Shown here in pieces: positions 18,530 through 64,000 of a stretch of 64,000 nucleotides of DNA. Origin of the DNA: Chthoniobacterales bacterium. GTDB lineage: Bacteria > Verrucomicrobiota > Verrucomicrobiia > Chthoniobacterales > JACTMZ01. The first letter of the stretch is position 1. The number at the start of each line of letters is the position of its first letter. The position numbers and the translations under genes are program-made. The stretch lies in contig JBGSSV010000194.1 in the NCBI GenBank assembly GCA_041736875.1, positions 1,993 to 65,992 on the forward strand, read 5' to 3'. The notes below the pieces were generated by a model. The model did not search any database, was not told where the DNA came from, and was given only the letters and a program-made list of their open reading frames with translations.

Positions 18530-18659
18530 GGTTGTGGTCGGGGTGTGTGGGGAGTGGATGGGAAGAATAGGACGATCCGTTAGGCCGGTGGCCTTGCGCA
18601 ATAACGGCTTCAGGCAAAGAAAGAGAGGGTTTGCAAAGGATTGCTGATTTTTGTGTCTG

Positions 18660-24838: not shown

Positions 24839-24893
24839 GGTGTTTTTCCAATAAACTGCTAGTTTGAAAGTTGTCTGTCCCCCTCCCCCGGAG

Positions 24894-30272: not shown

Positions 30273-32312
30273 TCAAAGGCTCGGGCTCACACCGGCGGAG
30301 AACCTGAGGCGCGGGGCGGCCGCGCCGGAGTGGCGCGAATACACCCGAAGCGGATGCCAGCCTGCCGCGAGGCGGAGCCTCCCGCGATGCTCGCCGGCCG
30401 CACCGTGCAGAGGCTCGGTGATCACGCGAATGTCGTGGAGAAACAGCGTTGCGCCGGTGTCGCTCGCGAGGATGAATTCGTAGTCACCCTCTTCCGCAGC
30501 ATGAAAGTATCCGTTGAAGGCAACCCCGAAGGGGACGACGGTTGGAACTTCGGGCAGCAAGAGGGCGGAGGACTTGCCTTCGGCCACAGGCCGCAAAGTG
30601 CGGAAATCGGGCACCCATGGCAATTCACCTTGGAAGAAGGACCAGGCAAACTCGTTGGCCTCATCCGGCTTCGCCGCGAGGGAGGGCACCGGCGTCTGAT
30701 CGTAGGGTCGAGGCGCGGAAGCGTCGGGAATTCTCACCTGGAGCACGCGGGCCTTCATGGCCGCCTGCACCTCGGGGAGACCACCGTCTTGCGCAAGATT
30801 CTCGGCCTCCTGCGGGTCTGCGGAGAGATCGTAAATCTCGAAGTCGTCGTCTGCTGACCTCACGTCATAACGGATGCCTTTGTAACCATCGTGGTGGATG
30901 ACCTGCATCTGCCCGCGCTTGCGGCCCTGGCGGGCGGGCAGGAAATCCGGGATGTGCGGGGTTCTACCCGCGTGGAAATACTCGACGTAAACGAGGCCGG
31001 GCAGCCTCTGACCGCTGCCGCTCAAAGTGGGCACGAGGGAGACGCCGTCGGAGGCTGACGGCGCGGTCAGACCGGCCAGTTCGGCAAAGGTGGTCAGCCA
31101 ATCCCACTGGCCGGAGGCTTGGGCATCGGTGCGGCCGGCGGGAATGCCGGCGGGCCAGCGCGCGAGGGTGGGCACGCGGATGCCGCCCTCCCAAGTGTCG
31201 CGTTTGATGCCGTCGAAGGGGCCGAAGCTTTGAAAAAAACCCGGGGCGTGCGGCTCCGAGAGGTAGGACTCATCGGAAGGACCGTTGTCGGAGGTGAAAA
31301 TAACCAGCGTGTTGTCATCGATCCCGAGGTCCTTGAGCAGGTGAAGAAGGTCACCCACGCCGTCGTCGATGCGCCGAATGCTGTTGGCGTGGCGTTTCTC
31401 GACGTCCGGCCACGGGACTTCCGGCGTGGCCGGGTCGCGGTCGTGGTCCCACGTGGCATCGGCCAAGTCGGGATGCATCCATGCGTCTTTTTGGCCGGTC
31501 GCGGTGTTGAGCATCGCGTGGGGCCGGCCAGTCCACTGCATGCCGCCGTCGCGTCCGCCGCCGTCAGGATATGCGCAAGGGGGATTCTGCAACTTGGCGT
31601 GGGGAGTGTCGTAGGCGAGGTAGAGAAAGAAGGGCTGGGCGGGATGCGCGGCCGTGTGCTCCACGATCCATTGCTTGGTCCGCGCCGTGAAAAGATCTGT
31701 TGTGTAGCAGAGGTCGAGATCCGCTGAGATTTCGCGCTCGTTTTCCCAAACCTCACGACCGTCCTCCTTCGGGTAATGGTAGTGGCCATCTCGATGACGC
31801 ACGTAGCCAAAGAAAAAATCGAAACCACGGCAGGTCGGATAACCGGCCCAGACGGCAGGCGTGCCGGCGGGATTTTTCTCATCGCCGCCCTGCAAACCCC
31901 ATTTGCCCACGGCGGCAGTGGCGTAGCCGGCTTGGCGGAGCACGGTCGCAAGGGTGTGGGTATCGGCGAGGGCCTTGTCGAAATGGTTGTCGCGCACACT
32001 GGCATGACCTTGGGTGAGACCGGTCAGCAGCGAGGCGCGGGCCGGGGCGCACACCGAGGCGGCGGCGTAGTGCTGGGTCATCTTGAGCCCGTCGCGCGCC
32101 AAGGTATCAAGGTGCGGAGTGGCAAAGGAGGGCTGAGTGCGATCCTGCCGCGCGGCCCGCTGATTTTGCACAAACACACCCACATCCCCGTAGCCGAGAT
32201 CATCGCAGAGAATGTAAAGGATATTGGGCCGGGGCGCCGAGGCTGGCGGCTCGCCGGGGAGAGGTGTGGTGGTCAAGGCAGTCATGATGGATAAACCGCG
32301 GATAAGTCTCAC
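30273..32312 (-). CDS. Cys-type (formylglycine) arylsulfatase with C-terminal PA14-like domain
   Basis: PNILYILCDDLGYGDVG and SVCAPARASLLTG (CxPxR) are the sulfatase signatures. The C-terminus FNGYFHAAEEGDYEFILASDTGATLFLHDIRV...LAAGWHPLRVY fits the PA14 pattern. No hydrophobic signal peptide is visible at either candidate start. Confidence 0.88.
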   Translation of the reverse strand: MRLIRGLSIMTALTTTPLPGEPPASAPRPNILYILCDDLGYGDVGVFVQNQRAARQDRTQPSFATPHLDTLARDGLKMTQHYAAASVCAPARASLLTGLTQGHASVRDNHFDKALADTHTLATVLRQAGYATAAVGKWGLQGGDEKNPAGTPAVWAGYPTCRGFDFFFGYVRHRDGHYHYPKEDGREVWENEREISADLDLCYTTDLFTARTKQWIVEHTAAHPAQPFFLYLAYDTPHAKLQNPPCAYPDGGGRDGGMQWTGRPHAMLNTATGQKDAWMHPDLADATWDHDRDPATPEVPWPDVEKRHANSIRRIDDGVGDLLHLLKDLGIDDNTLVIFTSDNGPSDESYLSEPHAPGFFQSFGPFDGIKRDTWEGGIRVPTLARWPAGIPAGRTDAQASGQWDWLTTFAELAGLTAPSASDGVSLVPTLSGSGQRLPGLVYVEYFHAGRTPHIPDFLPARQGRKRGQMQVIHHDGYKGIRYDVRSADDDFEIYDLSADPQEAENLAQDGGLPEVQAAMKARVLQVRIPDASAPRPYDQTPVPSLAAKPDEANEFAWSFFQGELPWVPDFRTLRPVAEGKSSALLLPEVPTVVPFGVAFNGYFHAAEEGDYEFILASDTGATLFLHDIRVITEPLHGAAGEHRGRLRLAAGWHPLRVYSRHSGAAAPRLRFSAGVSPSL

Positions 32313-47187: not shown

Positions 47188-47206
47188 AGGAAATCCTGTT
47201 TGTTGT

Positions 47207-48247
47207 TTATTTGTGCCGGTAATGTGTGGCCGGCAGTTCGCGCAGGCGTTGGGCCGCCTGCTCCGCTGTGAGATCGCGCTGGGCCTCCGCCAACATCTCG
47301 TAACCGACCATGAATTTCTTCACGGTGGCCGAGCGCAGCAGGGGCGGATAAAAATGCGCGTGCAACTGCCAGTGGGCGAGATCCCCCGCCTCATTCGGCG
47401 CACCGTGCCAGCCCATGGAATAGGGAAACGAGGTCTCGAAGAGGTTGTCGTAGCGGATGAGCAGCGCCTGGAGCACTTCGGCCAAGCTGGTGCGCTCCGC
47501 CTCCGTCAAGTCCGGCAGACGCAGAACATGACGGGTCGGCAGCAGCAGGATTTCATACGGCCAGAGTGCCCAAAATGGAACCACCGCGACCCAGTGCTCG
47601 TTGCTCACGACGACGCGGGTCTGATCTGCCATCTCGCGTTGCACGTAATCAAGCAGCAAGACAGATCCGTGCTCGTTCCGGTAAATCCGCTGCTCGCGGT
47701 CCTCGATCGCGATCTCGTTCGGCAGGAAATTGCCGGCCCACACCTGGCCGTGCGGGTGCGGGTTGGAGCATCCCATCACCCCGCCCTTGTTCTCGAAGAC
47801 CTGCACCCAGCGGTAACGCCCACCGAGTTCGGCGGTTTGCTCCGCCCAAACGTCCACCACCTTGCGGATGTCCGGCACGGCCATTTCGGCCACCGTCAAA
47901 TCGTGGCGCGGGGAAAAGCAGATGACGCGACACTCGCCCCGCACCGGATCGACGCGCAGCAGGTTGTCTTCCGCCCCCCTTGCTTCCGGCGTGTCGGGGA
48001 GCAAGGCCGAAAAGTCGTTCGTAAAGACAAAGGTGGATTCGTAATTCGGATTCACATCATCGCCCGAACGCTTGTTGCCCGGGCAGAGGTAGCAGGTGGG
48101 ATCGTAGGCCGGACGCCCGTCGTTGGCCGCCTTCTCCGTCTGGCCCTGCCACGGGCGCTTGGTGCGATGTGGTGAAACCAGGATCCACTCGCCGCGCAAG
48201 GGATTGAAGCGGCGATGCGGATGTTCATCCGAATGAAAGGTTGTCAT
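47207..48247 (-). CDS. galT: galactose-1-phosphate uridylyltransferase (class I)
   Basis: [30 protein letters not shown] (zinc site) and [10 protein letters not shown] (HPH active site) are present. Confidence 0.92.
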
Positions 48248-48272
48248 GGATATTTAACGTTTGCGGTTTGGA

Positions 48273-50459: not shown

Positions 50460-51582
50460 GTTGGTTTTCTGATTCCGGGTGATTTCGCTTTTCAAAAACG
50501 GTGAGATCCCAACCATCGTGCCAGTGAATCGTGAAGCCTCGGTCTGCTTGCCACGAAACCGGAAGCCACACATAACGACCGTCGATCGCATTGGCGGGGG
50601 TCCAAATATCGAACAGGGCGATGAACGCATCGGCGAGGCCATGGACCTTCTGCACGTAAGTGCTCTGCGCTCCGAAGGTCTTCTCCGGGCCGAACCCATT
50701 CTGCGGGTTCACCCCCCGGCAAGGGTTCTCCATCTCGTGCCAGGGGCCCATGATGTTTTGCGCGATGGCGCAGCGGGCCGCGTTGGGGTCCCAACCGGTG
50801 CAACCGCTGGCAATCAGGTAGTAAAATCCATCACGCTTGAAGACCGCCGCGGCTTCCATGTAGCGGCCCTCGAAGAGGCGGACGAAGCGCCCGGCCGGGG
50901 AAAGATAATCTGCCTCAAGTTCCGAGATGTGAAGAGTGCTATTCTCCTCGGAGGAAAAGATATGATACGCCTTGCCGTCCTCATCCACAAAGAGGTTCAT
51001 GTCGCGGGCCATCTGGCCGTGGGGCAGGTCGCGGGCGAAGATGTTACTTTGGATGACGTTCAGTCGCGGCAGCGGATGGTCGCCAGTGAACCCATCGCCG
51101 ACCAAGCCCGGGGAATGTAGCGTAGGGGAATCATTCAGCGGATAGGCCCCCGCGTTGGGACGAAAGGCGCGAAGGTAGGTGAACGGTCCGGTCGGCCGGT
51201 CAGCCACGGCAACCCCGCTGCTGGCGGTGTCATAGCCGCAGCCCTTTTTTTCCAGGTGAAACCACATGACAAACTTCCCGGTGGACGAGTTGAAAATCAC
51301 CTTGGGGCGTTCGAGAATGCAGCCGACTTCGATGTCATGGCCGGGCTCCGTGCTGACCGCGAGGGCAATGCCTTCGTCCTTCCAATCGTAAAGATCCGGG
51401 GAGGAATAAGCATGCACGCCGACCATGGCCCGATTGCCCGCGTCGCCTTCGATCTTGTGCTCCCCGAACCAGTAGTAAGTCCCCTCGTGGAAAAGCAGCC
51501 CACCCCCGTGGGCGTTGATGGGGACACCGTTGGTGTCATTCCAGGTTTTTCCCGGCTCAAACATGCGAAGCGACGTGCTCAT
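50452..51582 (-). CDS. cytoplasmic GH43 hydrolase, exo-beta-1,3-galactanase-like
   Basis: PINAHGGGLLFHEGTYYWFGEHK and GKFVMWFHLE are the GH43 blocks. No signal peptide is present (MSTSLRMFEPGKTWND). The 3' end overlaps the GH112 start by 8 nt. Confidence 0.75.
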   Translation of the reverse strand: MSTSLRMFEPGKTWNDTNGVPINAHGGGLLFHEGTYYWFGEHKIEGDAGNRAMVGVHAYSSPDLYDWKDEGIALAVSTEPGHDIEVGCILERPKVIFNSSTGKFVMWFHLEKKGCGYDTASSGVAVADRPTGPFTYLRAFRPNAGAYPLNDSPTLHSPGLVGDGFTGDHPLPRLNVIQSNIFARDLPHGQMARDMNLFVDEDGKAYHIFSSEENSTLHISELEADYLSPAGRFVRLFEGRYMEAAAVFKRDGFYYLIASGCTGWDPNAARCAIAQNIMGPWHEMENPCRGVNPQNGFGPEKTFGAQSTYVQKVHGLADAFIALFDIWTPANAIDGRYVWLPVSWQADRGFTIHWHDGWDLTVFEKRNHPESENQHA

Positions 51583-51641: not shown

Positions 51642-53162
51642 TCAGATTCCAGCCCGCAAGCGCTCGAGCTCCCTGCGGTTATTCTCCGCCTTTTCCCTCG
51701 TGAGGGGATAGAACTTGAGAAGGACGAAACACAGGATGGCCGGACCGGCAGCGCCCAGGCACATGGCCAGGCGCATGTTAAGGTAGGTTTCCGGGCTCTG
51801 CGATGACGCACCGGGATCGAAGCCGATGGCGTTGAGGAAAACGCCGATCATGACGAAGCTGATGGCAAACGAGGCTTTCATGAACCAGCCGTAGATCGCC
51901 CCGAACATGCCTTCTCGCCGACAGCCATTCTTGATCTCGTCATCGTCACACACGTCGGCAATCAGCGACTGGCCAAGAACACCCACGCCGATCCAGAACA
52001 GGCCGCCAGTCAAAGGATCGAGCCAAATGAGCGACTGAAAGACCGCGACGAGCGAACCGCCCACAGCCTCCAGACTCGACCAGCTCAGCGCGGTGTCGAA
52101 GCGACCGGGGCGATAGACAAACCAGCGGATGGCCGCGTTGAGGATCATCATGCCGTAGATGAACATGAAGCCGCGGATCTTGGTCATTTTCCCGGTCAAC
52201 CAGACGATCAAGGGGATGCCGAGAACGCCGACCAAAGCATAGCCGACGGTCACAATCAGCTTCCACTGCGTTCCCACCGCTACGTCGCCATTCGAGAGGT
52301 AGTAGATCAGAAGATACCAGTCCATGTTGCTGGCAAACATGCCGGCAATGATGGTGAAGACGGCGATGGCACAGAGAATCGCGAACGCCCGGTTTTGCAG
52401 GCACATCCGGACGGATGACCAGAAACGATCCCTCTTCCCGTGGTGTTCCTTGATGTTGATTTCATAGTTGCGCTCTCTGCCGAAGAAGGCGGGGAGCATG
52501 CCGAAGAGCGTCATGCCGATTCCGCCGTAAACGGCTGCGGACATGCGGATGCCTTCCATTTTCTCCGCCGTGGTCAGGTCGCCGGATTCGGCGTAGCCGT
52601 ATTTCCAGGCGATGAACATCAACGAGAAGGGAATCAGGCCCATGTAGGTCATCTCGCCCAAGCGGTTCCAGAATGTGACGTAGCCCTGCACGATGGTGCG
52701 CTCGTCGTAGTCCGGCGTCATCTCGTAGGTCAGGGCGATGAAGGGCACCGAGAAGATCGTGTAGGCGGTATAGAACAGAATGCTGGTCGTAAGGAACCAA
52801 GCCAGCTTTCCGGCATCGCTCCACTCCATCGGGATCATCCAGATTGATGCAAAGGTCAGGCCCATGAGAATGGCGCCGCAGAAAATGAACGGTCGACGGC
52901 GACCGAAGCGCGATCTGAAGTTGTCCGAGATATTCCCCATGATGGGGTCGGTGATGGCATCCCACAGGAGCGGGATGGCCAGCACGATGCCCACCCAGAA
53001 GGCATTGATGCCCAGAATCATGTTCAGCACCGCCTGTCCGGTCGTGCGAACGCTTTGGTTGCCCAGTGAGACGGTGAATCCCCCAGTGCCTACCGACAAC
53101 TTCTCGGCGATGCTCAGTTTCCCGCTGTTTGGCGCCGGTGGCTGATGTGGGCTATTGTCCAT
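51642..53162 (-). CDS. glycoside-pentoside-hexuronide (GPH):cation symporter, MFS
   Basis: ATG at 53162 gives MDNSPHQPPAPNSGKLSIAEK. DAITDPIMGNISDNFRSRFGRRRPFI is the GPH signature, and about 12 hydrophobic segments follow. Confidence 0.85.
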   Translation of the reverse strand: MDNSPHQPPAPNSGKLSIAEKLSVGTGGFTVSLGNQSVRTTGQAVLNMILGINAFWVGIVLAIPLLWDAITDPIMGNISDNFRSRFGRRRPFIFCGAILMGLTFASIWMIPMEWSDAGKLAWFLTTSILFYTAYTIFSVPFIALTYEMTPDYDERTIVQGYVTFWNRLGEMTYMGLIPFSLMFIAWKYGYAESGDLTTAEKMEGIRMSAAVYGGIGMTLFGMLPAFFGRERNYEINIKEHHGKRDRFWSSVRMCLQNRAFAILCAIAVFTIIAGMFASNMDWYLLIYYLSNGDVAVGTQWKLIVTVGYALVGVLGIPLIVWLTGKMTKIRGFMFIYGMMILNAAIRWFVYRPGRFDTALSWSSLEAVGGSLVAVFQSLIWLDPLTGGLFWIGVGVLGQSLIADVCDDDEIKNGCRREGMFGAIYGWFMKASFAISFVMIGVFLNAIGFDPGASSQSPETYLNMRLAMCLGAAGPAILCFVLLKFYPLTREKAENNRRELERLRAGI

Positions 53163-56100
53163 AAAGATTTCTTCCGCAGGCCGCCATGGCGCGGACCAGT
53201 TCGGCGTTGGGGCCGTCCGCGACATCATAGAGGCCGACGTCGAAATTCTCGCCATCGTAACGACCGGCGGCGCTCTGGTCACGCCACTGGAACCAGTGGG
53301 CGCCGACAAGTTTGGGATTTTTCACGGCTTCAGCGATGAATTCCTTGAGCAACCGCCCCTGCTGCACCGCATCTTGCGCGCTGCGCAAGCCGCCGCCGAG
53401 GTTGTTGCCCGAGACGTCGGCGAAATGGAATTCCGAGATGAGGACGGGCTTGTCGGTTGCGCCATACTGTTTGAGCTCGGGATGATAGGAGTAAATGTTG
53501 GCGCTGATCACATCGGCATGCCGGGCCAGCGCGGCGATGACCTCGGATGGACCGGAGTTCATCCGGCAACCGAGATATAGCACGTTGGGCGAGTAGGCGG
53601 TGAGTTCTTCCCGGACCATGCTGAACATGGTGTCGGCAAACAATGTGGCCAAGGCCGAGCAATCGGCGGCATCGGCCTCCGAAAACAAATCGGGGTCGGT
53701 TGTTTTCAACAGATCATCCCAACTCCCCAGCGTCGTCTTCCACGCTCGGTTCAGCGCCGCGATGTCGCCGTGCTTTTTCTTGAGCCATCCGATGAAAACC
53801 TTCCGCGCCTTCGAACCGGTGGTGCTGTGACCGAAGATGGCGCCGACCAGAAGCCGGGCGTCGTTCTTCCAATGCAGCTCGTTGTCCACGAACGCGCCGA
53901 GGCACCAGGGGTCGTTGGCAAACTTGACGGGATAACCTGCCAACGCCTTGCGCAAACTGAGGCGGGTTTCCGGGTTGAACGGGTCGGGCAGTTTAGGAGC
54001 AGCCTCGGGATACACGTAATGTAGCATGGCCACATAGGGCACTTCCCGGCGCTCGATGATGGCGTTGTCCGACCACGCACCGATGGTGTTGAGGTGGGTG
54101 TATTTGAGACGCTCGACATCCTGGTCGACCTGCTGCTTTTCCCAGCCCTCGCCGTATTTTCGCCATAGGTTGGCCCTCGTGAAATCGAAATGGGGCACGT
54201 CGGGCCGGGCAAGAAAGTTTTCCTCCACCTCGAGCTTCGTGTGGAAGCGCCCGAATACCGGGTCGTCCGCCGCAGGCAGATCTTGGAAGACCGCCTGATC
54301 CCGCTCGGTGGGCGTCTGGCCGGCGAAGTCAATGCCGATGCAGTTGGCGCCAAACGACCAGAAAAGCCGCCCCTCCGGATCCACAAACCACCATTTACCT
54401 TTCACCTTCTCCGAGCGGAAAAAGCCGGTCGCCTTGAGCTGGGGACCGGCCTGCCAGCCGCCATACTTATTGAGGTCGCGGGCCGGTCCGATTTCCCGGA
54501 CCAGCGCGTCTTCGACCTTTGCTTTCGCTTTGATGTCGTCATCGGAGAGGACCTTCCCCGGCCAGGTGCGGTGGAGGTATTGACCGTAACGATCAAGGAT
54601 CGGGAGGACATCGGCCAGGCTCTCATCCGTTTCTTGCAGTGGAGCCATGGGGCCGAGTTCGAACGCATGCTCCTCGGGAGTGGAGCAGGTGATGACAAGA
54701 TCCCTCACATCCGCCGGATCGAAGGTGTGCCAGTGGCGGAAGTAACCGTTCGGCCGACCGGACATGCGGAGGTAAGCCGGATGCTTCGCGCGATAGTCGG
54801 CCGTGCGTTGGAAGGCCACGCCCAGCGGCAGCGTCTCCCCAGATTTGATCACGGTGCGGCCAAGGGCGGACTTCGAAAACGTGGTCGCGCCGTCGTTGCG
54901 AGCCATCACGTCCAGAACAAGCTCCGTTGGTCCCGTGTTTTTCACTATCAGGCCGAGCACGCGGATATTCTGCATGTTCCAGGCCTCGCCGTGGGCCGGC
55001 TCCAGCACGAGGCGAAACGGACCTTGGCCGCGGATCTCCTGAACTTCCTTGCCTGGGGAGACTTTCACTCCCTCGCTTTTTTCAATGCGGTAGGGAATCG
55101 ACTCTGAGCCCGGGGCGCCAACTTCACCGCGCCAGAGCTTCTCGAGCGATTCCAGCAGGGTGGACGACTTGTCCGTTCCGAGCTCATACATGCGCTCGGA
55201 CATCGCGCGCGAGGCGCGGGTGATTTCCGGATACGGCGTGTCGGTCACATCCACGAAGCCTATCTGGTAGTTCTCCCCCGAGCTTCCTCCGGGTGACACC
55301 GGGCGGGCGGCGGCCGATTGGTCGGGGAAGGCGAACCAGTGCGTGCCGACGATATTCGGGTGCTTGAGGCCCGACAGCACGTAGGCCACGTAGGCACGAC
55401 TGCGCTGGATCTGGTCGCCGACCGGCCACAACCCCACGCCGGGCACCCCTCGGTCCGGAGCCCCGAAGTGGAATTCGGTTTCCATGCAGGGCATGTCGCC
55501 TGCCTTGGAAACCTTGGAGCCGGAGAGTGGTTCGTAGCTGTTGCCGCTGAGGACATCCACATACTTGGCCGATTCTTCGTAAACTTCTTGGTCGGCCTTG
55601 TGCTTGCGGGACCCGAGGTAGAGGTGGTTCGGCAAGGCCTCGCGCATGGCTTCGCGACAAAGCCGGTAGTAGGTGCCAGAGATGAGGCGCTTCAGGTCCG
55701 AGAGGTCGGCTTTGAAACCCTCGGTCTCGTTTTCGGCATCCGGCAGCGCCCCGATCGCTTGCCACGAGTCATAGGATGTTCCCCACGCGCTGTTGAGTTT
55801 TTTGATCGTCCCGTGCTTGTTTTTGAGCCATTCCACGGAAGCGATTCGTGCGGGCTGTTCGGGGCCGCGGAGGAAGGCATTCTGCACGAAGGGTTCGTTC
55901 CAATAGATCTCGTTGTCGATGAAGACGCCGAGAACCCACGGGTTGTCCTTGTCCGGAACGATCCGGCGCAGTCCCTCGACCACGCCGGCTTTGAAGTCCT
56001 TGGCGAACGGATCGACCACCTTGTTGCCGAGGGGCGAACCTTTGCCACCCAGATGGAGAATGGGGGTGAACGGCGTGCGTTGGTCCGCCATCAGCCCGGC

Positions 56101-57312
56101 ATCCGACCACGCACCGATGGTGTTCATGCCCCACTGACGAAGCCTGCGATGGACGCGGTCGCGCGCCGGCTCCTGCCACGAGGGACCGAAGGTGCGGGCA
56201 AGGTTCGCAACCATGAATTGCATCTGGTTGTTCTTGATGGCCCCGCCGAAGAGCGGATCACCCTCCGCGGGCAGCCAGGCGAAGAGGGATTCGCGGCCCG
56301 GGATCGGCGTGACCTGTTCGAAGCCGATGCTGTTTGCACCGTGCGAGAAGAAGAGCCGCCCCTCGGGATCGATCAGCCACCATTTGCCGTCCACCTTCTC
56401 CACGCGGAAGAACCCGGTGGCCTGCAACTGCGGACCGTTAGCCCATCCTCCGAAACGATTGAACGAGCGGGGACCTTGGTCATTTCTGGCTGCGGCCAAC
56501 TCGGCCTCGTGCCGCTGCTTCAGTTCGCCTTCGTCATGCAGTTTCCCCGGCCAGTCCACTTTGCGGACCTGGCCGAACTCGTCAAGGTAGGGCAACTCCA
56601 ACCGGTCCGCATTCGCCTCGGCACCGTAAGGGTAGGCGAGGCTGATCACGAAGTCGTCCAGCGCCAAGGTGGAGGACGTGGACTGGATGACCAACCGGCA
56701 GGCGATGACCTTCGAGGGATCGAACGGTTTCCAGTGGTCCCGGTGGCCGTTGGGCTTGCCGCTTTGCTGGTTGAAGATCGGCGGCGTATCGTTCAGGTCC
56801 TTCGCGCGCTGGAAGGGAAAACCCAGCGTGGCCCGCTCGCCCGGCATGACGAACGCCTGCGACGGAGCGCTGTTGGCCCAGTCGAGCGCGCCCTTGTTGT
56901 CCAAACGGCCACGAATCCAGACCAAGCCCGGGCCGTTGTTGACGAAATCAATGCGGACAAAGCTGTAAGCTGAAACATCCCAGGAGCCCGAGGTCGGCGA
57001 CAGGATGACGTTCGCCCCCTGCTTCGGCATCTCGCCGGACAGCCGGAACGAGTCCTTGTCGCCCGGAGCGAAGCTCAAACCATCCGGACCTTTGCCCGTG
57101 ACATCCGTCAAGGCGCGCACCGGCGCGAGAAGATCCTCGATGGGTGTGGCGGAGGCTTGGCCGGATACCGCACCCGCAGCTCCCTCCCCGCTCGCCTCCT
57201 TCGGAGTGACCGCTTGGGAGGCAAGGACGAAACAAAAGCAACAGCCAAGAACAACGAGGAAGATGACGGCGGAAATGCGGAAGACAGACAGACGGAGGAA
57301 CGGATAGAACAT
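53152..57312 (-). CDS. membrane-anchored or secreted tandem double glycosidase: two complete beta-sandwich + GH-A (GH50/GH42-like) modules in one ~1386-aa chain
   Basis: ATG at 57312 gives MFYPFLRLSVFRISAVIFLVVLGCCFCFVLASQA; the tracked TTG at 57351 is an alternative. Module 1 has [37 protein letters not shown] and METEFHFGAPDRG. Module 2 has [50 protein letters not shown] and GAHWFQWRDQSAAGRYDGENFDVGLY. Confidence 0.8.
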   Translation of the reverse strand: MFYPFLRLSVFRISAVIFLVVLGCCFCFVLASQAVTPKEASGEGAAGAVSGQASATPIEDLLAPVRALTDVTGKGPDGLSFAPGDKDSFRLSGEMPKQGANVILSPTSGSWDVSAYSFVRIDFVNNGPGLVWIRGRLDNKGALDWANSAPSQAFVMPGERATLGFPFQRAKDLNDTPPIFNQQSGKPNGHRDHWKPFDPSKVIACRLVIQSTSSTLALDDFVISLAYPYGAEANADRLELPYLDEFGQVRKVDWPGKLHDEGELKQRHEAELAAARNDQGPRSFNRFGGWANGPQLQATGFFRVEKVDGKWWLIDPEGRLFFSHGANSIGFEQVTPIPGRESLFAWLPAEGDPLFGGAIKNNQMQFMVANLARTFGPSWQEPARDRVHRRLRQWGMNTIGAWSDAGLMADQRTPFTPILHLGGKGSPLGNKVVDPFAKDFKAGVVEGLRRIVPDKDNPWVLGVFIDNEIYWNEPFVQNAFLRGPEQPARIASVEWLKNKHGTIKKLNSAWGTSYDSWQAIGALPDAENETEGFKADLSDLKRLISGTYYRLCREAMREALPNHLYLGSRKHKADQEVYEESAKYVDVLSGNSYEPLSGSKVSKAGDMPCMETEFHFGAPDRGVPGVGLWPVGDQIQRSRAYVAYVLSGLKHPNIVGTHWFAFPDQSAAARPVSPGGSSGENYQIGFVDVTDTPYPEITRASRAMSERMYELGTDKSSTLLESLEKLWRGEVGAPGSESIPYRIEKSEGVKVSPGKEVQEIRGQGPFRLVLEPAHGEAWNMQNIRVLGLIVKNTGPTELVLDVMARNDGATTFSKSALGRTVIKSGETLPLGVAFQRTADYRAKHPAYLRMSGRPNGYFRHWHTFDPADVRDLVITCSTPEEHAFELGPMAPLQETDESLADVLPILDRYGQYLHRTWPGKVLSDDDIKAKAKVEDALVREIGPARDLNKYGGWQAGPQLKATGFFRSEKVKGKWWFVDPEGRLFWSFGANCIGIDFAGQTPTERDQAVFQDLPAADDPVFGRFHTKLEVEENFLARPDVPHFDFTRANLWRKYGEGWEKQQVDQDVERLKYTHLNTIGAWSDNAIIERREVPYVAMLHYVYPEAAPKLPDPFNPETRLSLRKALAGYPVKFANDPWCLGAFVDNELHWKNDARLLVGAIFGHSTTGSKARKVFIGWLKKKHGDIAALNRAWKTTLGSWDDLLKTTDPDLFSEADAADCSALATLFADTMFSMVREELTAYSPNVLYLGCRMNSGPSEVIAALARHADVISANIYSYHPELKQYGATDKPVLISEFHFADVSGNNLGGGLRSAQDAVQQGRLLKEFIAEAVKNPKLVGAHWFQWRDQSAAGRYDGENFDVGLYDVADGPNAELVRAMAACGRNLYGQ

Positions 57313-57474
57313 CAGCTTCGAGGGGACGAGGGGGGCTTTCGCAGTTGACAATGGAACATAATGTCAGACAAATATCAAACAGATTGTAGCAGCTTCGTTT
57401 GCGCCGAAAAAAACCGTCACCGAGGCCTGTTGCAGTTAGTGTTCTAAAGCCCCCCCTTCGATTGAACCACGCTC

Positions 57475-60400
57475 ATGATTGAAGTTCAAAACCAACGGCG
57501 CCCCCTTTTTTCGGCGGGCGCCCTCCTCGGAGCGTCTCTCCACTGCTTCGCAACCCACACTGCATTCGCTGAAATGTCCAACGCCGAAACCACCGCCTCC
57601 CCCACCCGGCCGAACATCATCATCATCAACGCCGACGACCTCGGATTCGGCGACCTGGGCTGCTACGGGGCGGACGGCATTCCGACGCCCAACCTCGACC
57701 GCATGGCGGCGGAAGGCGTCCGCTTCACCGATTTCTACGCCACGGCCGCGACGTGCACACCCTCGCGCTACAGCCTCCTGACCGGCCGCTATCCGTGGCG
57801 GAACCCGAAGGCCAAGATCTTGGCCGGCGATGCCCCGATGATCATCGGCAAAGACGAACTCACCCTCCCTGCCGCGCTGAAACGCGCCGGCTACACCACG
57901 TCCGTCATCGGCAAATGGCACATCGGCCTCGGCGACGGCACAATCGATTGGAACGGCGACATCCGCCCCTCCCCGAATGACGTCGGCTTCGACGAATCGT
58001 TCATCATGGCCGCGACGGCCGACCGTGTGCCTTCGGTGTATATCCAAAACGGACGGGTAGTGAACCTTGACCCCGCCGATCCGCTCGAAGTGTCTTACGC
58101 CAAAAGCAACCCGTTCCCCGACATGCCCACTGGGCTCACGCATCCGGAGTTGCTCACCATGCGCCACAGCGACGAACAGCACGCGGAAACGATCGTCAAC
58201 GGCGTCCCACGCATCGGGTTCAGCCGTGGCGGCAAATCGGCCACCTGGGACGACGCGACCATGACTGATGTGTTCCTGCAACAGACAAAGGACTTCATCA
58301 CCCGCCAGAAGGATTCTCCGTTTTTCCTCTACATGGCCCTGCACCAACCGCATGTCCCGAGGCTTCCATCGAAGCGCTTTGCGGGCACCTCGGAGAAAGG
58401 ACCTCGCGGCGATGTGATCATGGAGATGGATTGGATGGTCGGCGAAGTGCTCGACCACCTGAAGAAGTCCGGGCTCGATAAAAACACGATCGTCGTCTTC
58501 ACCAGCGACAATGGGCCGGTCTTGGATGACGGCTACGTGGACGGATCGGAGGAGCGCAACGGATCCCACCGCCCCGCTGGCCCGCTCCGCGGCGGAAAAT
58601 ACAGCTTCTTCGACGCAGGTGCCCGTGTCCCGACGATTGTGTGGGCGCCCGGCATGGCCAAGCCCGGCGAGTCCGATGCACTTCTCAGCCAAGTGGATTT
58701 CCTCGCCAGCTTCGCGCACCTTGTCGGCCAGGACCTCAAGCCTTCGGAAACAGCCGACAGCCAGCAACTGGCCGACGCCCTGCTCGGGAAATCCGAGAAG
58801 GGCCGCGACAACCTCGTCACCGAGGGATTCGGTGCGAAGACGCTCCTGCGCGAGGGACCCTGGGTTTACATTCCCCCCTACCCCGGTCCCCGTCTCTTTG
58901 GCGACAAGAACGTCGAGTCCGGCAATTCAAAGGTCCCACAGCTCTACGATCTTTCCTCCGACATCGGGCAAACCAAGAACGTTGCCCCCGAACACCCGGA
59001 AAAAGTCGCGGCCATGAAGGCCCTGCTGCAATCGATCCGCGCGCAGCCCACCAAGCCCGCGCCGGAAGCCAGCGCCGCCCGACCGCCGAACATCCTCTTC
59101 ATCCTGTGCGACGACCTTGGGATCAACGACCTGCATTGCTACGGGCGCAAGGACCACCATACGCCCCACCTCGACCGTTTGGCCGCGCAGGGAACGCGCT
59201 TCACGTCCGCCTACGCCTCCCAGGCTATTTGCTCGGCCTCACGTGCCGGCCTTCTCACGGGGCTCAACCCGGCGCGACTGCACCTTACGGACTGGTTGCC
59301 CGGACGCTCCGATGCGGTATCACAGCGGGTGCTCCATCCGGAGATCATGATGAACGTGCCGCTTTCGGTCAAAACCCTGCCGCGCTATTTCCGGGAGGCC
59401 GGCTACGCCACGGGAATGGTCGGAAAATGGCACATCGGCAAAAGCCCGGGGCCGGCCGAGCACGGGTTCGACTTTGTTTATCATCCCAGCGACGGCAAAA
59501 ACACCACGCCCTCGGAAACGGAAGGCGGCAAGGCGGAATACGAACTGACCCGCGAGACGATCGGGTTCATCGAAGCGAACAAGGACCGCCCGTTCGTGGC
59601 CTATCTCGCCCATTACACACCCCACATTTCCTACACCGCCAAACAGGACCTGATCGACAAGAACGCGCAGGCCTTCGAGCCGGTTTATGCGGCGCTGATC
59701 GAGACCTTGGACGATTCGGTGGGGCTCCTGCTCAACAAGCTCGACGAACTAGGACTGGCCGATAACACCATCGTCGTCTTCACCTCGGACAACGGCGGCC
59801 TCCATGTGCCCGAAGGCGGCCACGTCCGCGTGACCCACAACACTCCCTTCCGGGCCGGCAAAGGCCACACCTACGAGGGCGGCCAGCGGATTCCGCTCAT
59901 CGTGCGCTGGCCCGGCCATGTGCCAGCCGGCCGCGTGGTTGATGCGCCCGTCAACAATGTGGACTGGATCCCCACGCTGCTGGAAATGGCCGGAACGACC
60001 CCGCCAGACGGCTTCGACGGCGTCAGCTTCGCCCATGGGCTCACGGGAGGAGCGTTCCCGACAAGGCCGCTTTTCTGGCATTATCCGCACTACACCAACC
60101 AAGGCGGACGCCCCAGCGGCGTCATGCGGGATGGGCGGTGGCTGCTGGTGGAATACTACGACGAGGACAGAACGGAACTCTACGACCTCTCGGCGGAGTT
60201 GGAGCAAAAACAAGACCTGGCCGCCCGCGAACCAGCGCGCGTGGCCACCATGAAGACTGCACTCGCGGACTGGCGCCGGGCCAACGATGCCCAGCTCAAT
60301 ACGCCCAACCCCGAAAACGACGAGGAGGCCTTCCGCAAACTTTACATCACCGTCGACTCCAGCACATTCGATCCCACAACGGCTGACGAGGCCGCGTGGG

Positions 60401-60495
60401 CGAAGATGCAGGATTGGCGCCGGGAGATGAATCGTATGGCCTCGGAGAAGCGAAAGCATGATCAGCCGGAGGGCGGCTCTGCCGGCGCGCCATAG
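57475..60495 (+). CDS. tandem double sulfatase (two complete Cys-type sulfatase domains, 1006 aa)
   Basis: Signal-like N-terminus LFSAGALLGASLHCFATHTAFA. Domain 1 has PNIIIINADDLGFGDLGCYG and ATCTPSRYSLLTGRYP. After the linker QPTKPAPEASAARP, domain 2 has PNILFILCDDLGINDLHCYG and AICSASRAGLLTGLNP. Confidence 0.88.
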   Translation: MIEVQNQRRPLFSAGALLGASLHCFATHTAFAEMSNAETTASPTRPNIIIINADDLGFGDLGCYGADGIPTPNLDRMAAEGVRFTDFYATAATCTPSRYSLLTGRYPWRNPKAKILAGDAPMIIGKDELTLPAALKRAGYTTSVIGKWHIGLGDGTIDWNGDIRPSPNDVGFDESFIMAATADRVPSVYIQNGRVVNLDPADPLEVSYAKSNPFPDMPTGLTHPELLTMRHSDEQHAETIVNGVPRIGFSRGGKSATWDDATMTDVFLQQTKDFITRQKDSPFFLYMALHQPHVPRLPSKRFAGTSEKGPRGDVIMEMDWMVGEVLDHLKKSGLDKNTIVVFTSDNGPVLDDGYVDGSEERNGSHRPAGPLRGGKYSFFDAGARVPTIVWAPGMAKPGESDALLSQVDFLASFAHLVGQDLKPSETADSQQLADALLGKSEKGRDNLVTEGFGAKTLLREGPWVYIPPYPGPRLFGDKNVESGNSKVPQLYDLSSDIGQTKNVAPEHPEKVAAMKALLQSIRAQPTKPAPEASAARPPNILFILCDDLGINDLHCYGRKDHHTPHLDRLAAQGTRFTSAYASQAICSASRAGLLTGLNPARLHLTDWLPGRSDAVSQRVLHPEIMMNVPLSVKTLPRYFREAGYATGMVGKWHIGKSPGPAEHGFDFVYHPSDGKNTTPSETEGGKAEYELTRETIGFIEANKDRPFVAYLAHYTPHISYTAKQDLIDKNAQAFEPVYAALIETLDDSVGLLLNKLDELGLADNTIVVFTSDNGGLHVPEGGHVRVTHNTPFRAGKGHTYEGGQRIPLIVRWPGHVPAGRVVDAPVNNVDWIPTLLEMAGTTPPDGFDGVSFAHGLTGGAFPTRPLFWHYPHYTNQGGRPSGVMRDGRWLLVEYYDEDRTELYDLSAELEQKQDLAAREPARVATMKTALADWRRANDAQLNTPNPENDEEAFRKLYITVDSSTFDPTTADEAAWAKMQDWRREMNRMASEKRKHDQPEGGSAGAP

Positions 60496-60506
60496 GCATT
60501 CCTCTC

Positions 60507-61346
60507 ATGAACCTCACCCGAAGAAAGTTCCTTGGTCTTTCCGCTGCAGCCGCCGCCGCAATTCCGATACACGCGTTGGCTCAAGAGTCCGGCCAGGCCG
60601 GACCGTCGGGCTCGAAGAAAAAGGGCCTCGGCCTCGGGGCGAAAAATCCGTTCTGGCCCGGCATACTCACGGACCTCCGCTGCCGCTGGGTTTACACCTG
60701 GATGGGCAACGTGCCGCCCGACCTGCCCGAGGGGACAGGCTTCATTCCCATGATCCGCAGCGGCGGCATCACCAATACTGCCGCGATCGCCAAGGTCGCG
60801 GATCAAGCCAAGGCGAACAACATCACCGAGCTGCTTGGCCTCAACGAACCCGACGCAGCGAAGCAGGACGACATGACGGTCGAAGGCGCCCTCGAGGCCT
60901 GGCCGCTGCTGATGGAGACGGGTCTGCGACTCGGCAGTCCGGGCTGCGTCCATCCCGACAAGGATTGGATGGTCGAGTTCATGGCCGGCGTGAAAGAGCG
61001 AGATCTTCGGGTCGATTTCGTCTGCGTGCATTCGTATGGCGGCCCGAATCCGGAGGCGCTGGTCCAGCGGCTGGAGAAAGTGCACAAGATGTATGATCGC
61101 CCGCTCTGGATCACGGAGTTCGGTGTGGGCGACTGGGCGGCCAAGAGCGTCGAGGAGAACCAGCACTCGCCGGAGACGGTCCAGCGTTTCATGGAAAAAG
61201 TCCTGCCCATGCTCGACGACCTCGATTTCCTCGAGCGCTACGCGTGGTTTCCGTCCATGCCCGACAGCGGCCCTCTCGGCACCAGCGCGCTTTTCGACCA
61301 CAATGGAGAGTTGACCCCGCTGGGCGAAATCTACCGCGACGCATGA
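60507..61346 (+). CDS. Tat-signal GH128-like (Glyco_hydro_cc) glycoside hydrolase
   Basis: MNLTRRKFLGLSAAAAAAIPIHALA is a twin-arginine signal. KKKGLG...WVYTWMG, LLGLNEPD and PLWITEFGVGDW are the catalytic-core blocks. Confidence 0.75.
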   Translation: MNLTRRKFLGLSAAAAAAIPIHALAQESGQAGPSGSKKKGLGLGAKNPFWPGILTDLRCRWVYTWMGNVPPDLPEGTGFIPMIRSGGITNTAAIAKVADQAKANNITELLGLNEPDAAKQDDMTVEGALEAWPLLMETGLRLGSPGCVHPDKDWMVEFMAGVKERDLRVDFVCVHSYGGPNPEALVQRLEKVHKMYDRPLWITEFGVGDWAAKSVEENQHSPETVQRFMEKVLPMLDDLDFLERYAWFPSMPDSGPLGTSALFDHNGELTPLGEIYRDA

Positions 61347-61439
61347 TGCCGACCCCTTCGCGCATTTTGTGGCACCGGCACGAAACGCATCCCGCTTGAT
61401 CAGCCCTCTCTCCACCCTCCAACCCACCAACACACCCCC

Positions 61440-62285
61440 ATGATGACCCGCCGCAAATTCCTCAACCTCGCCGCCGCATCCGCCGCCGCGCTCTCCATCA
61501 CCGCCTGCCAACGTCAACCGGGATTCCTGGATGGAATCTTTGCCCGGGGTTCAAAGAAGAAGGGTCTTGGTCAGACCGTGAAAGTGCCTGAGTGGGCCCA
61601 GCGGCTGAGTGACCTTCGCTGCAAATGGTTCTACTCCTGGAACTCCGCCATCCCCGAGGGCATTCCCCGGGGCATGGAATTCATACCCATGATCTATCGC
61701 TACGGCGGAAAACCGGAGACGATCTCGGCCCCCGCCGCGGCGGCCAAGCAGGCGGGCATCACCGAGTTGCTTGGCTTCAACGAGCCGGACGTCAAGAAGC
61801 AGGGCAATATGACGTTGGATGAAACGCTGAACGCGTGGCCGCTGCTGATGGAAACAGGGATGCGCCTCGGCAGCCCCGGCTGCGTGCATCCCGACAAGGA
61901 GTGGATGATCAACTTCATGAACGGCGTGAAGGAGCGCGGCCTGCGGGTGGACTTTGTCAACGTGCACTCCTATGGCGGCCCGAGCGCCGAAGCGCTGGTC
62001 AAGCGGTTGGAGAGCGTCCACAAGATGTTCGATGAGCGGCCGGTCTGGATCACTGAGTTCGCGGTGGGCGACTGGGAGGCGAAAAGCGTCGAGCAGAATC
62101 GCCACAAGCCGGAGGCGGTGATGCGCTTCATGGAGAGCGTTGTCCCCATGCTCGACAAGCTGGACTTCGTCGAGCGCTACGCGTGGTTCCCGGCCAAGAA
62201 CACGAGCATTCCCCTCGGCACCAGCGCGCTCTTCGACGCGAACGGGGCACTCACCCCGCTGGGAGAGATCTACCGCGATGCGTGA
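61440..62285 (+). CDS. Tat-signal lipoprotein, GH128-like glycoside hydrolase (tandem paralog)
   Basis: MMTRRKFLNLAAASAAALSITAC has an RR motif plus a lipobox-like ITAC. It is collinear with 60507..61346 (KKKGLG, WFYSWNS, LLGFNEPD, PVWITEFAVGDW). Confidence 0.75.
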   Translation: MMTRRKFLNLAAASAAALSITACQRQPGFLDGIFARGSKKKGLGQTVKVPEWAQRLSDLRCKWFYSWNSAIPEGIPRGMEFIPMIYRYGGKPETISAPAAAAKQAGITELLGFNEPDVKKQGNMTLDETLNAWPLLMETGMRLGSPGCVHPDKEWMINFMNGVKERGLRVDFVNVHSYGGPSAEALVKRLESVHKMFDERPVWITEFAVGDWEAKSVEQNRHKPEAVMRFMESVVPMLDKLDFVERYAWFPAKNTSIPLGTSALFDANGALTPLGEIYRDA

Positions 62286-62520
62286 TGCCGGCGACGGGCG
62301 GGATTTGGGTGGCCTGCACCCGCTTCGGCCTGTTTATCACGTTCGGGCTCTACTCGATTCCCGCCGGCGTCTGGCCGCGCGAGAAGATGGGGAGGAATGA
62401 TTACGCGAGCGCAGAGTGGCCCTGGCCAGAGTCATCGGGAGGGATCCCCAGGGCGGATTACGACACGCTGCTCGTGAGATTCTGCCCCGACAAGTCCGAT
62501 GCGGAGGTGGGGGGGTCCGG
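62285..62520 (+). pseudogene. 5' fragment of a GH29 fucosidase paralog
   Basis: [60 protein letters not shown] parallels the 23296 gene ([67 protein letters not shown]). Similarity stops at a G7 run (62509-62515). There is no KHHDGF block and no signal peptide. Confidence 0.65.
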
Positions 62521-62645
62521 TTGGTCTCCGAGGCCAACATGCCCCCACGAGCGACGCGGAATGCATCGCTCGCATAAGCGATTGTGTAAAATAGACACGC
62601 GGCGCCACTGGACAGGCTGTCTGACTTGCGTTTGAGTGGTTGCGG

Positions 62646-64000
62646 ATGATGCCCCCTAAGAGTCTCCGTCGCTTCCTTCCGCTGACCGTGATGGTTACGC
62701 TCGGCCTCACTCCCGGTTCGGCCGCGGAGGATCCGGCGCTGAGCGAGCAGCCGATTGCGGTGAACCAGGTGGGGTATGAAACCGTCAACCCGAAGCGATT
62801 CACGGCGCCGAAAGCAGCGGACGGAACGCGATTTTCGATTCGACCAGCAGCTGGAGGAGACGCCTTGTTTCAAGGGGAGATCCGGGGAAACATCGGCGAT
62901 TTCTCGGGGTTCAAGCCGGAGGATTCGACGGGGCGGTTTGTGGTGGAATTGGAGGGCGCAACGAAGGCCACGAGTGATCCGTTTTTGATTCGTTCGGACC
63001 TGTTTCGCGAGCAGTTCTGGCAGGCGGCGGTGGATTTTCTCATTGATGCACGGTCGGCGGTCGGAAGCCACCCGAGTGCTTTTGGCGGATGTCCGTGGCG
63101 CGATGGAACCTACTACGATGCGATCATTCCGGCGCTGGTCATGTTCTACCTCGCCGATCCAGAAGGCGTGAAGGCCATGCCAAGGCAATTGGATTGGGCG
63201 GCGGACAAGAAGCGCGTAACGGCTCCGGATTTTACCTTCATCGACAAGGACCCCGGCGGGAAGGGTTTCCTGGATGCCGTGAAGGCCTACTACGAACTCG
63301 AACCACCCGGCGCCGATGCGCCCGACGTGGTGAAGCTGATCCATTGGGGCGCAGGCATGTATCTCGTCAATCCCAACACCCAGGACATCATGGGAGATCC
63401 CGCCAAGCTGGGAATCCACCAGCAGACCGTGGAGCAGATGGCTTACGTGATTTGGGCGTGGCCGGTGCTCAAACAATGGCTGCCCCAGTCGTTCCACAAC
63501 CAAGTCCGTGACTTTGTTTTCGCGAACTGGAGCCCTTCCCTCGAGATCAGCCGGTGGTGGGACCCCAAAACCTACCTCACCCCCGAGGATCTCACCGAAA
63601 AGAATCCGATGGGAGGCTTATTGCATCCCTTCAAAGGACGGCACGCGCCGGGTCACTCCATCGTCCCTAATCTGCTCATGCATGAAGTCGCCAAGCGCGA
63701 GGCTCGCGGTGATGCCGCGAGCTATCTTCAGGCCGCCGTGAAGCAGGCCGAGTGGTGCGTGAAGCATCTCGATTGGAACGATCCCCGCACCACCAAGGGC
63801 CACCGCATGAGCGAGCACCGCACCATTCCCAATCTCGTTTGGCTGCTGCAAAAGTATCCGGACCAAGCCCCCGCTGGACTGAAGGAGAAAATCAACGAAT
63901 GGGTGGATGTCGCGCTCAGCGGCACGGAAAACCTCTGGGACTACCGCCGCTACGATAGGGAGAATCACTGGTCGATCCCCAAGGTCAACGACGTCGGCAA
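62646..64000 (+). CDS. secreted putative (alpha/alpha)6-type glycoside hydrolase with GH9-like N-terminal Ig domain (3' end outside the window; ORF absent from the supplied track)
   Basis: My own translation from ATG 62646 is open to the window end. It reads MMPPKSLRRFLPLTVMVTLGLTPGSAAEDP..IAVNQVGYETVNPKRFTAP..DPFLIRSDLFREQFWQAAVDFLIDARS..CPWRDGTYYDAIIPALVMFYLADPEG...HRMSEHRTIPNLVWLLQKYPD. VNQVGY followed by K.FT is the usual start of the CelD-type Ig domain. The family is not confirmed. Confidence 0.6.
   Translation, partial: MMPPKSLRRFLPLTVMVTLGLTPGSAAEDPALSEQPIAVNQVGYETVNPKRFTAPKAADGTRFSIRPAAGGDALFQGEIRGNIGDFSGFKPEDSTGRFVVELEGATKATSDPFLIRSDLFREQFWQAAVDFLIDARSAVGSHPSAFGGCPWRDGTYYDAIIPALVMFYLADPEGVKAMPRQLDWAADKKRVTAPDFTFIDKDPGGKGFLDAVKAYYELEPPGADAPDVVKLIHWGAGMYLVNPNTQDIMGDPAKLGIHQQTVEQMAYVIWAWPVLKQWLPQSFHNQVRDFVFANWSPSLEISRWWDPKTYLTPEDLTEKNPMGGLLHPFKGRHAPGHSIVPNLLMHEVAKREARGDAASYLQAAVKQAEWCVKHLDWNDPRTTKGHRMSEHRTIPNLVWLLQKYPDQAPAGLKEKINEWVDVALSGTENLWDYRRYDRENHWSIPKVNDVG

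Follow-up and report, generated by a model that had tools for sequence, protein, structure and literature searches.

A tandem S1_15 and S1_16-like sulfatase gene in a glycan-degradation cluster of a Chthoniobacterales bacterium

A 64,000-nucleotide (nt) stretch of contig JBGSSV010000194.1 (assembly GCA_041736875.1) from a Chthoniobacterales bacterium, hereafter the window, carries on its plus strand a gene in which two sulfatase modules are encoded in one chain. The double sulfatase gene lies at 57475..60495 and was identified from the list of open reading frames (ORFs), its translation and two PF00884 stretches. It is a single uninterrupted ORF with an ATG start that encodes 1006 amino acids (aa) plus a stop codon, and its translation contains no internal stop, with no in-frame stop across 57466-60492. 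Pfam analysis of the 1006-aa product returned two stretches of the Sulfatase domain PF00884 (E = 1.5e-117). The two halves can be aligned with each other over their full length at only 29-40% identity, and each half matches solved sulfatases with E values of 1e-107 to 1e-159. Judged by these sequence matches, the two-sulfatase pattern is far beyond chance. The initial annotation of this DNA had described one gene with two full sulfatase domains, formylglycine (FGly) motifs CTPSR and CSASR, and a Pro/Ala linker near 59040-59080, and each of these was recovered at the positions given below.

The fusion is carried by five independent assemblies belonging to two lineages. An identical 973-aa product is encoded on contigs of two independent sequencing runs and assemblies, and an ortholog of 991 aa with 79% identity, found in two more runs and one metagenome-assembled genome (MAG), is also one uninterrupted fused gene. 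Collinear fusions with 45-49% identity occur in several other metagenomes. Because fused copies are present in independent assemblies and among collinear homologs, a missed stop codon, which had been named at first as one outcome that would undo the description, is excluded for practical purposes, and so is an assembly join. The sequences identify a true single gene with two modules rather than a pair of genes whose separating stop was overlooked. In the public gene call (P0001, 973 aa), translation begins at Met34, and the predicted signal peptide is thereby lost. An exact-sequence look-up of the 1006-aa product returned no match. The longer start at 57475 is backed by N-terminal hydrophobic segments in all aligned homologs.

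The protein begins with a predicted signal peptide at residues 1-32 (57475..57570; MIEVQNQRRPLFSAGALLGASLHCFATHTAFA, then EMS), in which a hydrophobic core and an A-x-A cleavage site were judged by eye and where the predicted local distance difference test (pLDDT) score is below 50. Homologs have hydrophobic N-terminal segments at the same position, and the sulfatase would be exported. Module 1, an S1_15 sulfatase at residues ~44-522 (57604..59040), was delimited by PDB matches, Foldseek and motifs. It is followed by a Pro/Ala-rich interdomain linker of ~15 residues, AQPTKPAPEASAARP (523-537; 59041..59085), placed by positions and pLDDT. Residues 528-534 of the linker have pLDDT below 50 in the AlphaFold model. 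No other part of the model between the two well-folded domains is of low confidence, and the length and sequence of the linker vary among homologs. Module 2, an S1_16-like sulfatase at residues ~538-950 (59086..60324), was delimited by PDB matches and motifs. The chain ends in a C-terminal tail of ~56 residues (60325..60492) with low pLDDT and a predicted helix at 972-996. This tail is common to the 79% ortholog and a stand-alone 496-aa S1_16 homolog (P0121, 60% identity) and is absent from the 45-49% fusion homologs.

AlphaFold gave two confident domains, with 629 residues at a pLDDT of at least 90 and both modules mostly above 90. Both modules fit an alpha/beta/alpha core with a C-terminal beta-sheet subdomain, as seen in the model and in Foldseek matches to sulfatases, and the Pfam domain SGSH_C was found in module 2. 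The predicted template modelling (pTM) score of the whole chain is 0.57, and therefore the model predicts no fixed interface or relative orientation of the modules. No PDB chain spans both modules, the best query TM-score in Foldseek being 0.47.

Module 1 belongs to S1_15 by both sequence and fold. The eight best PDB matches of the N-terminal half are all S1_15 enzymes (E from 1.7e-159 to 1.2e-141), and the next-best match is human arylsulfatase A at 4.5e-53. The matched enzymes include BT3109, BT1624, BT3333, BT4631, the lambda-carrageenan sulfatases S1_15A/B and Amuc0121. Superposition of the AlphaFold model on S1_15 structures with Foldseek gave target TM-scores of 0.96-0.98 and root-mean-square deviations of 1.1-1.6 A. 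The FGly motif CTPSR is located at residues 94-98 (nt 57754-57768), the metal ligands are D54, D55, D345 and N346, and the sulfate-binding Lys and His residues are K147, H149 and K375. In S1_15 enzymes acting on 6-sulfated galactose (Gal) or N-acetylgalactosamine (GalNAc), Luis et al. described a triad formed by the Asp-Arg of FIMAATGDRVP and the His of HDQSIV, which is found in 95% of terrestrial S1_15 sequences (bioRxiv 10.1101/2021.07.23.453482). The galactose triad of module 1 is D183 and R184 in FIMAATADRVP (58000-58032) and H236 in HAETIV (58180-58197), and all three residues are invariant in collinear homologs.

Module 2 is a probable member of S1_16 on the basis of its sequence relatives. 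The best PDB match of the C-terminal half is 9FO1 (AMOR_S1_16A, 'k-carrageenan sulfatase S1_16'), with E = 3.9e-107 and 45% identity over 417 aligned residues. The next matches are 6UST (8.5e-82), which is a Hungatella 6S-GalNAc sulfatase of S1_16 (PMC11760155), and then 7STT. AMOR_S1_16A is an exo-acting enzyme whose target is the 4-O-sulfate on the non-reducing galactose of kappa-carrageenan oligosaccharides (PMC11760155). The FGly motif of module 2, CSASR, is at residues 586-590 (nt 59230-59244), its metal ligands are D546, D547, D772 and N773, and the sulfate-binding Lys and His residues are K651, H653, H717 and K796. In the alignment, W79, H125, H149, N369 and Q370 of AMOR_S1_16A correspond to W607 (in HLTDWLPGR), H653 (in GKWH), H670 (in VYHPSD), N875 and Q876. 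W79 is a conserved Trp that closes the pocket (PMC11760155).

Both modules have kept their catalytic machinery. The consensus of the FGly motif in the S1 family is C/S-X-P/A-S/X-R (bioRxiv 10.1101/2021.07.23.453482). CTPSR and CSASR both fit it, with Cys and Arg invariant in 51 aligned fusions. Among eight collinear fusions with 46-79% identity, neither module shows any variation in its metal ligands, its sulfate-binding Lys and His residues, or its FGly Cys and Arg, and most of these residues are still invariant across the 51 fusions. Nei-Gojobori ratios of nonsynonymous to synonymous substitution (dN/dS) against the 79% ortholog are 0.124 for module 1 and 0.123 for module 2. The ratio is 0.38 for the C-terminal tail and about 1.5 for the linker, the latter calculated on 13 codons only. 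These comparisons demonstrate purifying selection on both modules and point to intact active sites. The halves also fall into different SulfAtlas subfamilies, S1_15 and (probably) S1_16, and keep their catalytic residues, so the architecture is not the one that the initial annotation had named as a warning case, namely two halves of one subfamily with one of them inactivated.

The two FGly motifs differ in type. Carlson et al. attributed the maturation of CxAxR sulfatases to the anaerobic sulfatase-maturating enzyme (anSME) and that of CxPxR sulfatases to the formylglycine-generating enzyme (FGE) (PMC2459300). Since the motif of module 2 is of the CxAxR type, the organism is predicted from its sequence to have an anSME or a tolerant FGE. 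The occurrence of CTPSR and CSASR in one protein suggests that the two sites may differ in maturase requirement. More distant S1_15-S1_16 fusions have CSPTR where module 2 has CSASR. No FGE (PF03781) or radical S-adenosylmethionine (radical-SAM) maturase was found in the Pfam matches of the 32 genes called in the window, and six-frame motif scans of the window for both enzyme types returned only two spurious off-frame matches. The early observation that the window contains no maturase is therefore correct but has no informative weight, because maturases are usually unlinked to their clients. In Kiritimatiellales, strains that encode about 500 sulfatases have only one anSME, which is unlinked, and the sulfatases of B. 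thetaiotaomicron are served by one anSME (PMC6388578).

Downstream of the sulfatase gene are two GH128-type (Glyco_hydro_cc) genes on the plus strand at 60507-61346 and 61440-62285, identified by Pfam PF11790 and a match to PDB 6UAQ at 7e-37. The gap between the sulfatase stop and the first GH128 gene is 11 nt, and no plus-strand terminator-like match was found in it; the only one on that strand, at 59457-59470, lies inside the sulfatase ORF. In the ortholog locus, the sulfatase-GH128-GH128 order is kept with a 4-nt overlap instead of the gap, and a CelD_N protein also follows. By this arrangement, the GH128 pair probably shares an operon with the sulfatase. Identity between each GH128 gene and the ortholog of the other is about 60-65%, and the two are thus paralogs of each other. 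The enzymes known from GH128 are beta-1,3-glucanases, an odd partner for galactose sulfatases.

Taken together, it is likely that the gene encodes one exported protein with two independent, catalytically competent FGly sulfatase modules and a short flexible linker between them, and that the modules have the following roles. A maturase encoded elsewhere would convert Cys94 and Cys586 to formylglycine, and export would then follow. Module 1 is predicted to be an exo galactose/GalNAc-6-O-sulfatase. Module 2 is predicted to remove the 4-O-sulfate from non-reducing-end galactose, with 6-sulfate on GalNAc as an alternative because S1_16 contains both activities. The initial annotation had suggested that one protein handles two sulfate positions, and this is a reasonable inference, as characterised S1_15 and S1_16 enzymes act at O6 and O4. 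The fusion would strip two kinds of sulfate ester off galactose-containing oligosaccharides. These would be released by the surrounding glycosidases, namely the GH128 pair of the same unit and the nearby GH50-like, GH35, GH43, GH29 and GH95 enzymes. Desulfation would unblock exo-glycosidases and permit uptake, while the fusion would ensure equal amounts and co-location of both activities.

Several points weigh against this interpretation. The subfamilies were assigned via labelled PDB relatives and not with SulfAtlas hidden Markov models. For module 2, the S1_16 enzymes BT3796 (1.9e-50) and BT3057 (3.4e-39) score below the S1_19 enzyme 6PRM (2.5e-61). S1_16 is itself heterogeneous and includes activities on 4S-Gal/GalNAc, exo activity on 4S of kappa-carrageenan and activity on 6S-GalNAc (PMC11760155). 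Because of this heterogeneity and this ranking, the position attacked by module 2 is uncertain, with O4 of Gal and O6 of GalNAc as the candidates. Visual inspection underlies the predicted signal peptide, and the operon and the promoter discussed below are likewise read from the sequence. GH50 and GH128 are polyspecific or glucan-acting families and do not point to one substrate polymer. Neither a characterisation nor an enzyme assay of a tandem sulfatase turned up in a literature search.

Upstream of the gene is an intergenic region of 162 nt (57313..57474), exactly the distance noted initially. Position 57313 is not the sulfatase start; it is the first base past the Met codon (57310-57312, minus strand) of a divergent glycosidase of 1386 aa with two modules (53152..57312, minus strand). 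This tandem GH50 enzyme matches the beta-agarase Aga50D (PDB 4BQ2) at 3e-73 in two matched stretches. Its modules are 35% identical, and each has a DNE motif (IDNEIYW and VDNELHW) and an EFHF motif, which would be the catalytic-glutamate motifs of GH50. A single-module GH50 paralog is located 7 kb away at 44133-46226 (minus strand).

The intergenic region contains a promoter- or operator-like element, TTGACA-N12-GTCAGACAAATATCAAAC, on the plus strand at 57345..57380, which ends 95 nt before the sulfatase ATG. In comparison with the 79% ortholog, TTGACA-N12/13-GTCAGACAAATATCAAAC is the only conserved block in otherwise diverged upstream DNA. The N12 form occurs once in the window against an expectation of 0.01. 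The element is at the same 95-nt distance from the sulfatase ATG in loci L001-L005, which cover both lineages (copies at 7668-7704 in L003 and 9857-9893 in L005). It may be the sulfatase operon's own promoter or operator. The element contains a small palindrome, TGTC-A-GACA. When 57000-62800 was scanned with the sigma-70 consensus, the intergenic region gave no promoter match, and the element was not flagged. Terminators in the same interval were no more frequent than in shuffles, and the short repeats and palindromes of the intergenic region were unconvincing.

The initial annotation had regarded the two neighbouring double enzymes as a pair that shares one control region and couples desulfation with depolymerisation. 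In its strong form, this alternative says that the sulfatase and the tandem GH50 are a dedicated co-regulated pair with one bidirectional promoter, the GH50 products being the specific substrates of the sulfatase. Divergent starts only 162 nt apart agree with it, as does the presence of a GH50-like gene near the fusion in both the 79% ortholog and a 48% homolog. However, the pairing is not conserved in the ortholog, where the immediate divergent gene is a 177-aa helix-turn-helix-like ORF, followed by a single-module GH50 and then an ATP-binding cassette (ABC) transporter. That GH50 is 62% identical to the window gene at 44133-46226 and replaces the tandem GH50. The block of tandem GH50, major facilitator superfamily (MFS) transporter, GH43, GH112, GalT and GalE was not found in the ~20-23 kb of the ortholog contig that was retrieved. 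The upstream element stays at a fixed distance from the sulfatase ATG, not from the divergent gene, even where the neighbour differs, and GH50 is missing from the neighbours of the fusion homolog P0009, which include GH2, GH29 and SASA. The pairing of the two double enzymes via one control region is thus lineage specific as far as these sequences go, and a dedicated co-regulated pair is possible but doubtful. What stands of the coupling is a looser association, since GH50-like genes occur near three different fusion lineages. GH50 is polyspecific and includes agarases, beta-1,3-glucanases, a beta-galactosidase and beta-glucuronidases. The 177-aa ORF of the ortholog locus (L003 7095-7628, minus strand) has a helix-turn-helix like that of sigma-70 region 4 or of LuxR-type proteins; it is a candidate local regulator and has no counterpart in the window.

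A bolder form of the favoured interpretation is that the protein is a bifunctional 6-O/4-O exo-desulfatase acting on doubly sulfated galactans, with a kinetic gain from the linkage and with differing maturation of its two sites. By analogy with studied sulfatases, CTPSR of module 1 would be convertible by FGE or anSME, while the CSASR type of module 2 is attributed to anSME only. This combination is speculative and considered unlikely. If it were true, one polypeptide would rely on a radical-SAM maturase or a relaxed FGE in a presumably aerobic verrucomicrobium, and no tandem sulfatase would have been characterised before it. Fusions of this kind may do no more than fix the stoichiometry, or they may allow true substrate channelling.

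A further alternative is that both modules act on the same residue, as a di-desulfatase for 4,6-disulfated galactose or GalNAc in which proximity is mechanistically required. It would agree with the removal of O6 and O4 sulfate from galacto-configured sugars by characterised S1_15 and S1_16 members, and with the recurrence of the S1_15-then-S1_16 order in several lineages. The module combinations found among homologs are, in contrast, those of a combinatorial architecture. They include S1_15 followed by an S1_16-like module, the reverse order (P0003 and P0013), and S1_15 with other subfamilies; to this last group belongs a large family with Vicinamibacterales among its source names. The pTM of 0.57 and the lack of a defined interface in the AlphaFold model do not favour mechanistic proximity either, and both modules have exo-type pockets, each of which would need its residue at a chain end. 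A same-residue di-desulfatase is therefore a still weaker candidate, and two independently acting modules remain the preferred interpretation.

It could also be argued that only one module is enzymatic and that the other is a degenerate binding or scaffold copy. Suspicion would fall on module 2, whose motif CSASR is a minority form with Ala in place of Pro and whose loop 609-625 near the active site is of low confidence in the model. In S1_16, 95% of sequences have Pro at the third position of the FGly motif (bioRxiv 10.1101/2021.07.23.453482). In contrast, Ala is permitted by the family consensus, CxAxR sulfatases are matured by anSME (PMC2459300), all catalytic and metal-binding residues are kept in both modules, and dN/dS is equally low, 0.12, in both. 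A degenerate copy is thus very improbable. The idea that two neighbouring sulfatase genes were merged through a missed stop or a mistake in sequencing or assembly, to which the short linker, the resemblance of both halves to complete stand-alone enzymes and the existence of stand-alone homologs (P0121, 60% identical to the C half; P0123, 53% to the N half) lend some colour, is effectively refuted by the stop-free 57466-60492, the identical 973-aa product in two independent assemblies, the fused 79% ortholog in three further ones (one a MAG) and the collinear fusions of other metagenomes.

The window contains three sulfatase domains by six-frame phmmer and motif scan, two of them in the double sulfatase and one in the gene at 30273..32312 (minus strand). 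No fourth domain was found in the window by the same methods, and the initial count of four was corrected to three. The third sulfatase has 679 aa, the motif CAPAR and a C-terminal PA14 domain, and it closely resembles the multidomain S1_20 sulfatases of Akkermansia muciniphila (9S8A at 8.9e-154 and 9S8X at 9.6e-151), which take 3-O-sulfate off N-acetyllactosamine (LacNAc) and lacto-N-biose. 9S8A is the Akkermansia S1_20-PA14 enzyme Amuc0451. By analogy with their characterised relatives, the three sulfatase modules of the window plausibly act between them on O3, O4 and O6 of galactose.

The whole window, with a G+C content of 60-69%, is a large glycan-degradation cluster. It includes three GH29, one GH95, a GH35, two GH43 and one GH31, together with a beta-helix protein, a SASA esterase, an ABC transporter, an MFS transporter, and a GH112 with GalT and GalE; PATR and N-methyl proteins are also nearby. 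The base composition and these proteins agree with a Chthoniobacter-like verrucomicrobium. At 46210-50699 (minus strand), a GH112 lacto-N-biose/galacto-N-biose phosphorylase, GalT and GalE are encoded in a row. GH112-GalT-GalE is the cytoplasmic pathway for Gal-beta-1,3-linked N-acetylhexosamine (HexNAc), typical of organisms that live on mucin or milk glycans, and one would not expect it in a Chthoniobacter-like genome. Three genes, at 8260-11700 (minus), 14501-18601 (minus) and 24864-30086 (plus), encode giant proteins (1146-1740 aa). Two of the proteins have PATR autotransporter-type repeats, and in one, F5/8 type C, ricin and Glyco_hydro_cc domains are combined with many He_PIG/Ig domains. 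These proteins are probably surface-anchored and glycan-binding or glycan-degrading.

Glycan-degrading neighbours were found around the fusion in every locus examined. At the P0006 locus, the neighbours are additional sulfatases, a SASA esterase and a PATR protein, and a GH50-like gene is found at a distance of 5.5 kb. In the P0009 locus, a GH2, a beta-helix protein, a GH29 and SASA are present, and the P0003 locus, with the reverse module order, has a GH16 and more sulfatases. As for the origin of the architecture, fusion of neighbouring genes was considered, and the stand-alone S1_16 homolog P0121 does not adjoin an S1_15 gene.

Fused sulfatases are frequent in public data. At least two FGly motifs were found in 66 of the 120 best clusters at 90% identity (63 with two and 3 with three). 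In an exhaustive HMMER search, the corresponding number was 41 of the 150 best representatives at 50% identity (39 with two and 2 with three), among which proteins reach up to 3278 aa. The SulfAtlas papers do not discuss multi-sulfatase proteins. Both subfamilies are characterised, whereas the fused architecture is common in public data and biochemically unstudied, and the gene described here is a sound but fairly ordinary example of it. Whether microbes can use sulfated glycans, for example algal galactans, fucoidans and mucins, is decided by their sulfatases, and the sulfate positions that an organism can remove are usually guessed from subfamily counts. As a clean and intact case of one chain that unites two sulfatase subfamilies, the gene shows that sulfatase modules rather than genes should be counted in annotation and that maturase genes need not adjoin their clients.

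Each module has close characterised relatives. Module 1 is 46-50% identical to the S1_15 enzymes BT1624, BT3109, BT3333 and BT4631 of Bacteroides thetaiotaomicron, Amuc0121 of Akkermansia and the lambda-carrageenan sulfatases S1_15A/B, with which it shares a nearly identical predicted fold, the CxPxR motif and the D-R / H triad. These enzymes are single-module proteins of ~500 aa, whereas module 1 directly precedes a second sulfatase. Module 2 is 45% identical to AMOR_S1_16A (9FO1), and the residues highlighted in that enzyme are kept. The gene of AMOR_S1_16A is located among GH29 and GH95 genes (PMC11760155), families that are also present in the window. In contrast to AMOR_S1_16A, which has a single module, module 2 is part of a fusion with an added 56-residue C-terminal tail; its loop corresponding to the E270-bearing loop differs, and its motif is CSASR rather than CSPTR.

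The architecture as a whole has two parallels in other bacteria. In 2016, the Planctomycetes P1 and P2 from Porphyra were reported to have two sulfatase domains within one gene, which was read as a gene fusion (PMC4807772). As in the gene described here, two unrelated sulfatase modules are encoded in one gene known from sequence, although the phylum is different. Fusions of S1_15 and S1_16 sulfatases with glycosidases are known from Kiritimatiellales. In strain F1 of that group, an S1_15-GH29 fusion (PMC6388578) combines a module of the S1_15/S1_16 kind with a second catalytic module in a sulfatase-rich member of the Planctomycetes-Verrucomicrobia-Chlamydiae (PVC) group. The partner in that fusion is a glycoside hydrolase, whereas in the Chthoniobacterales protein it is a second sulfatase.

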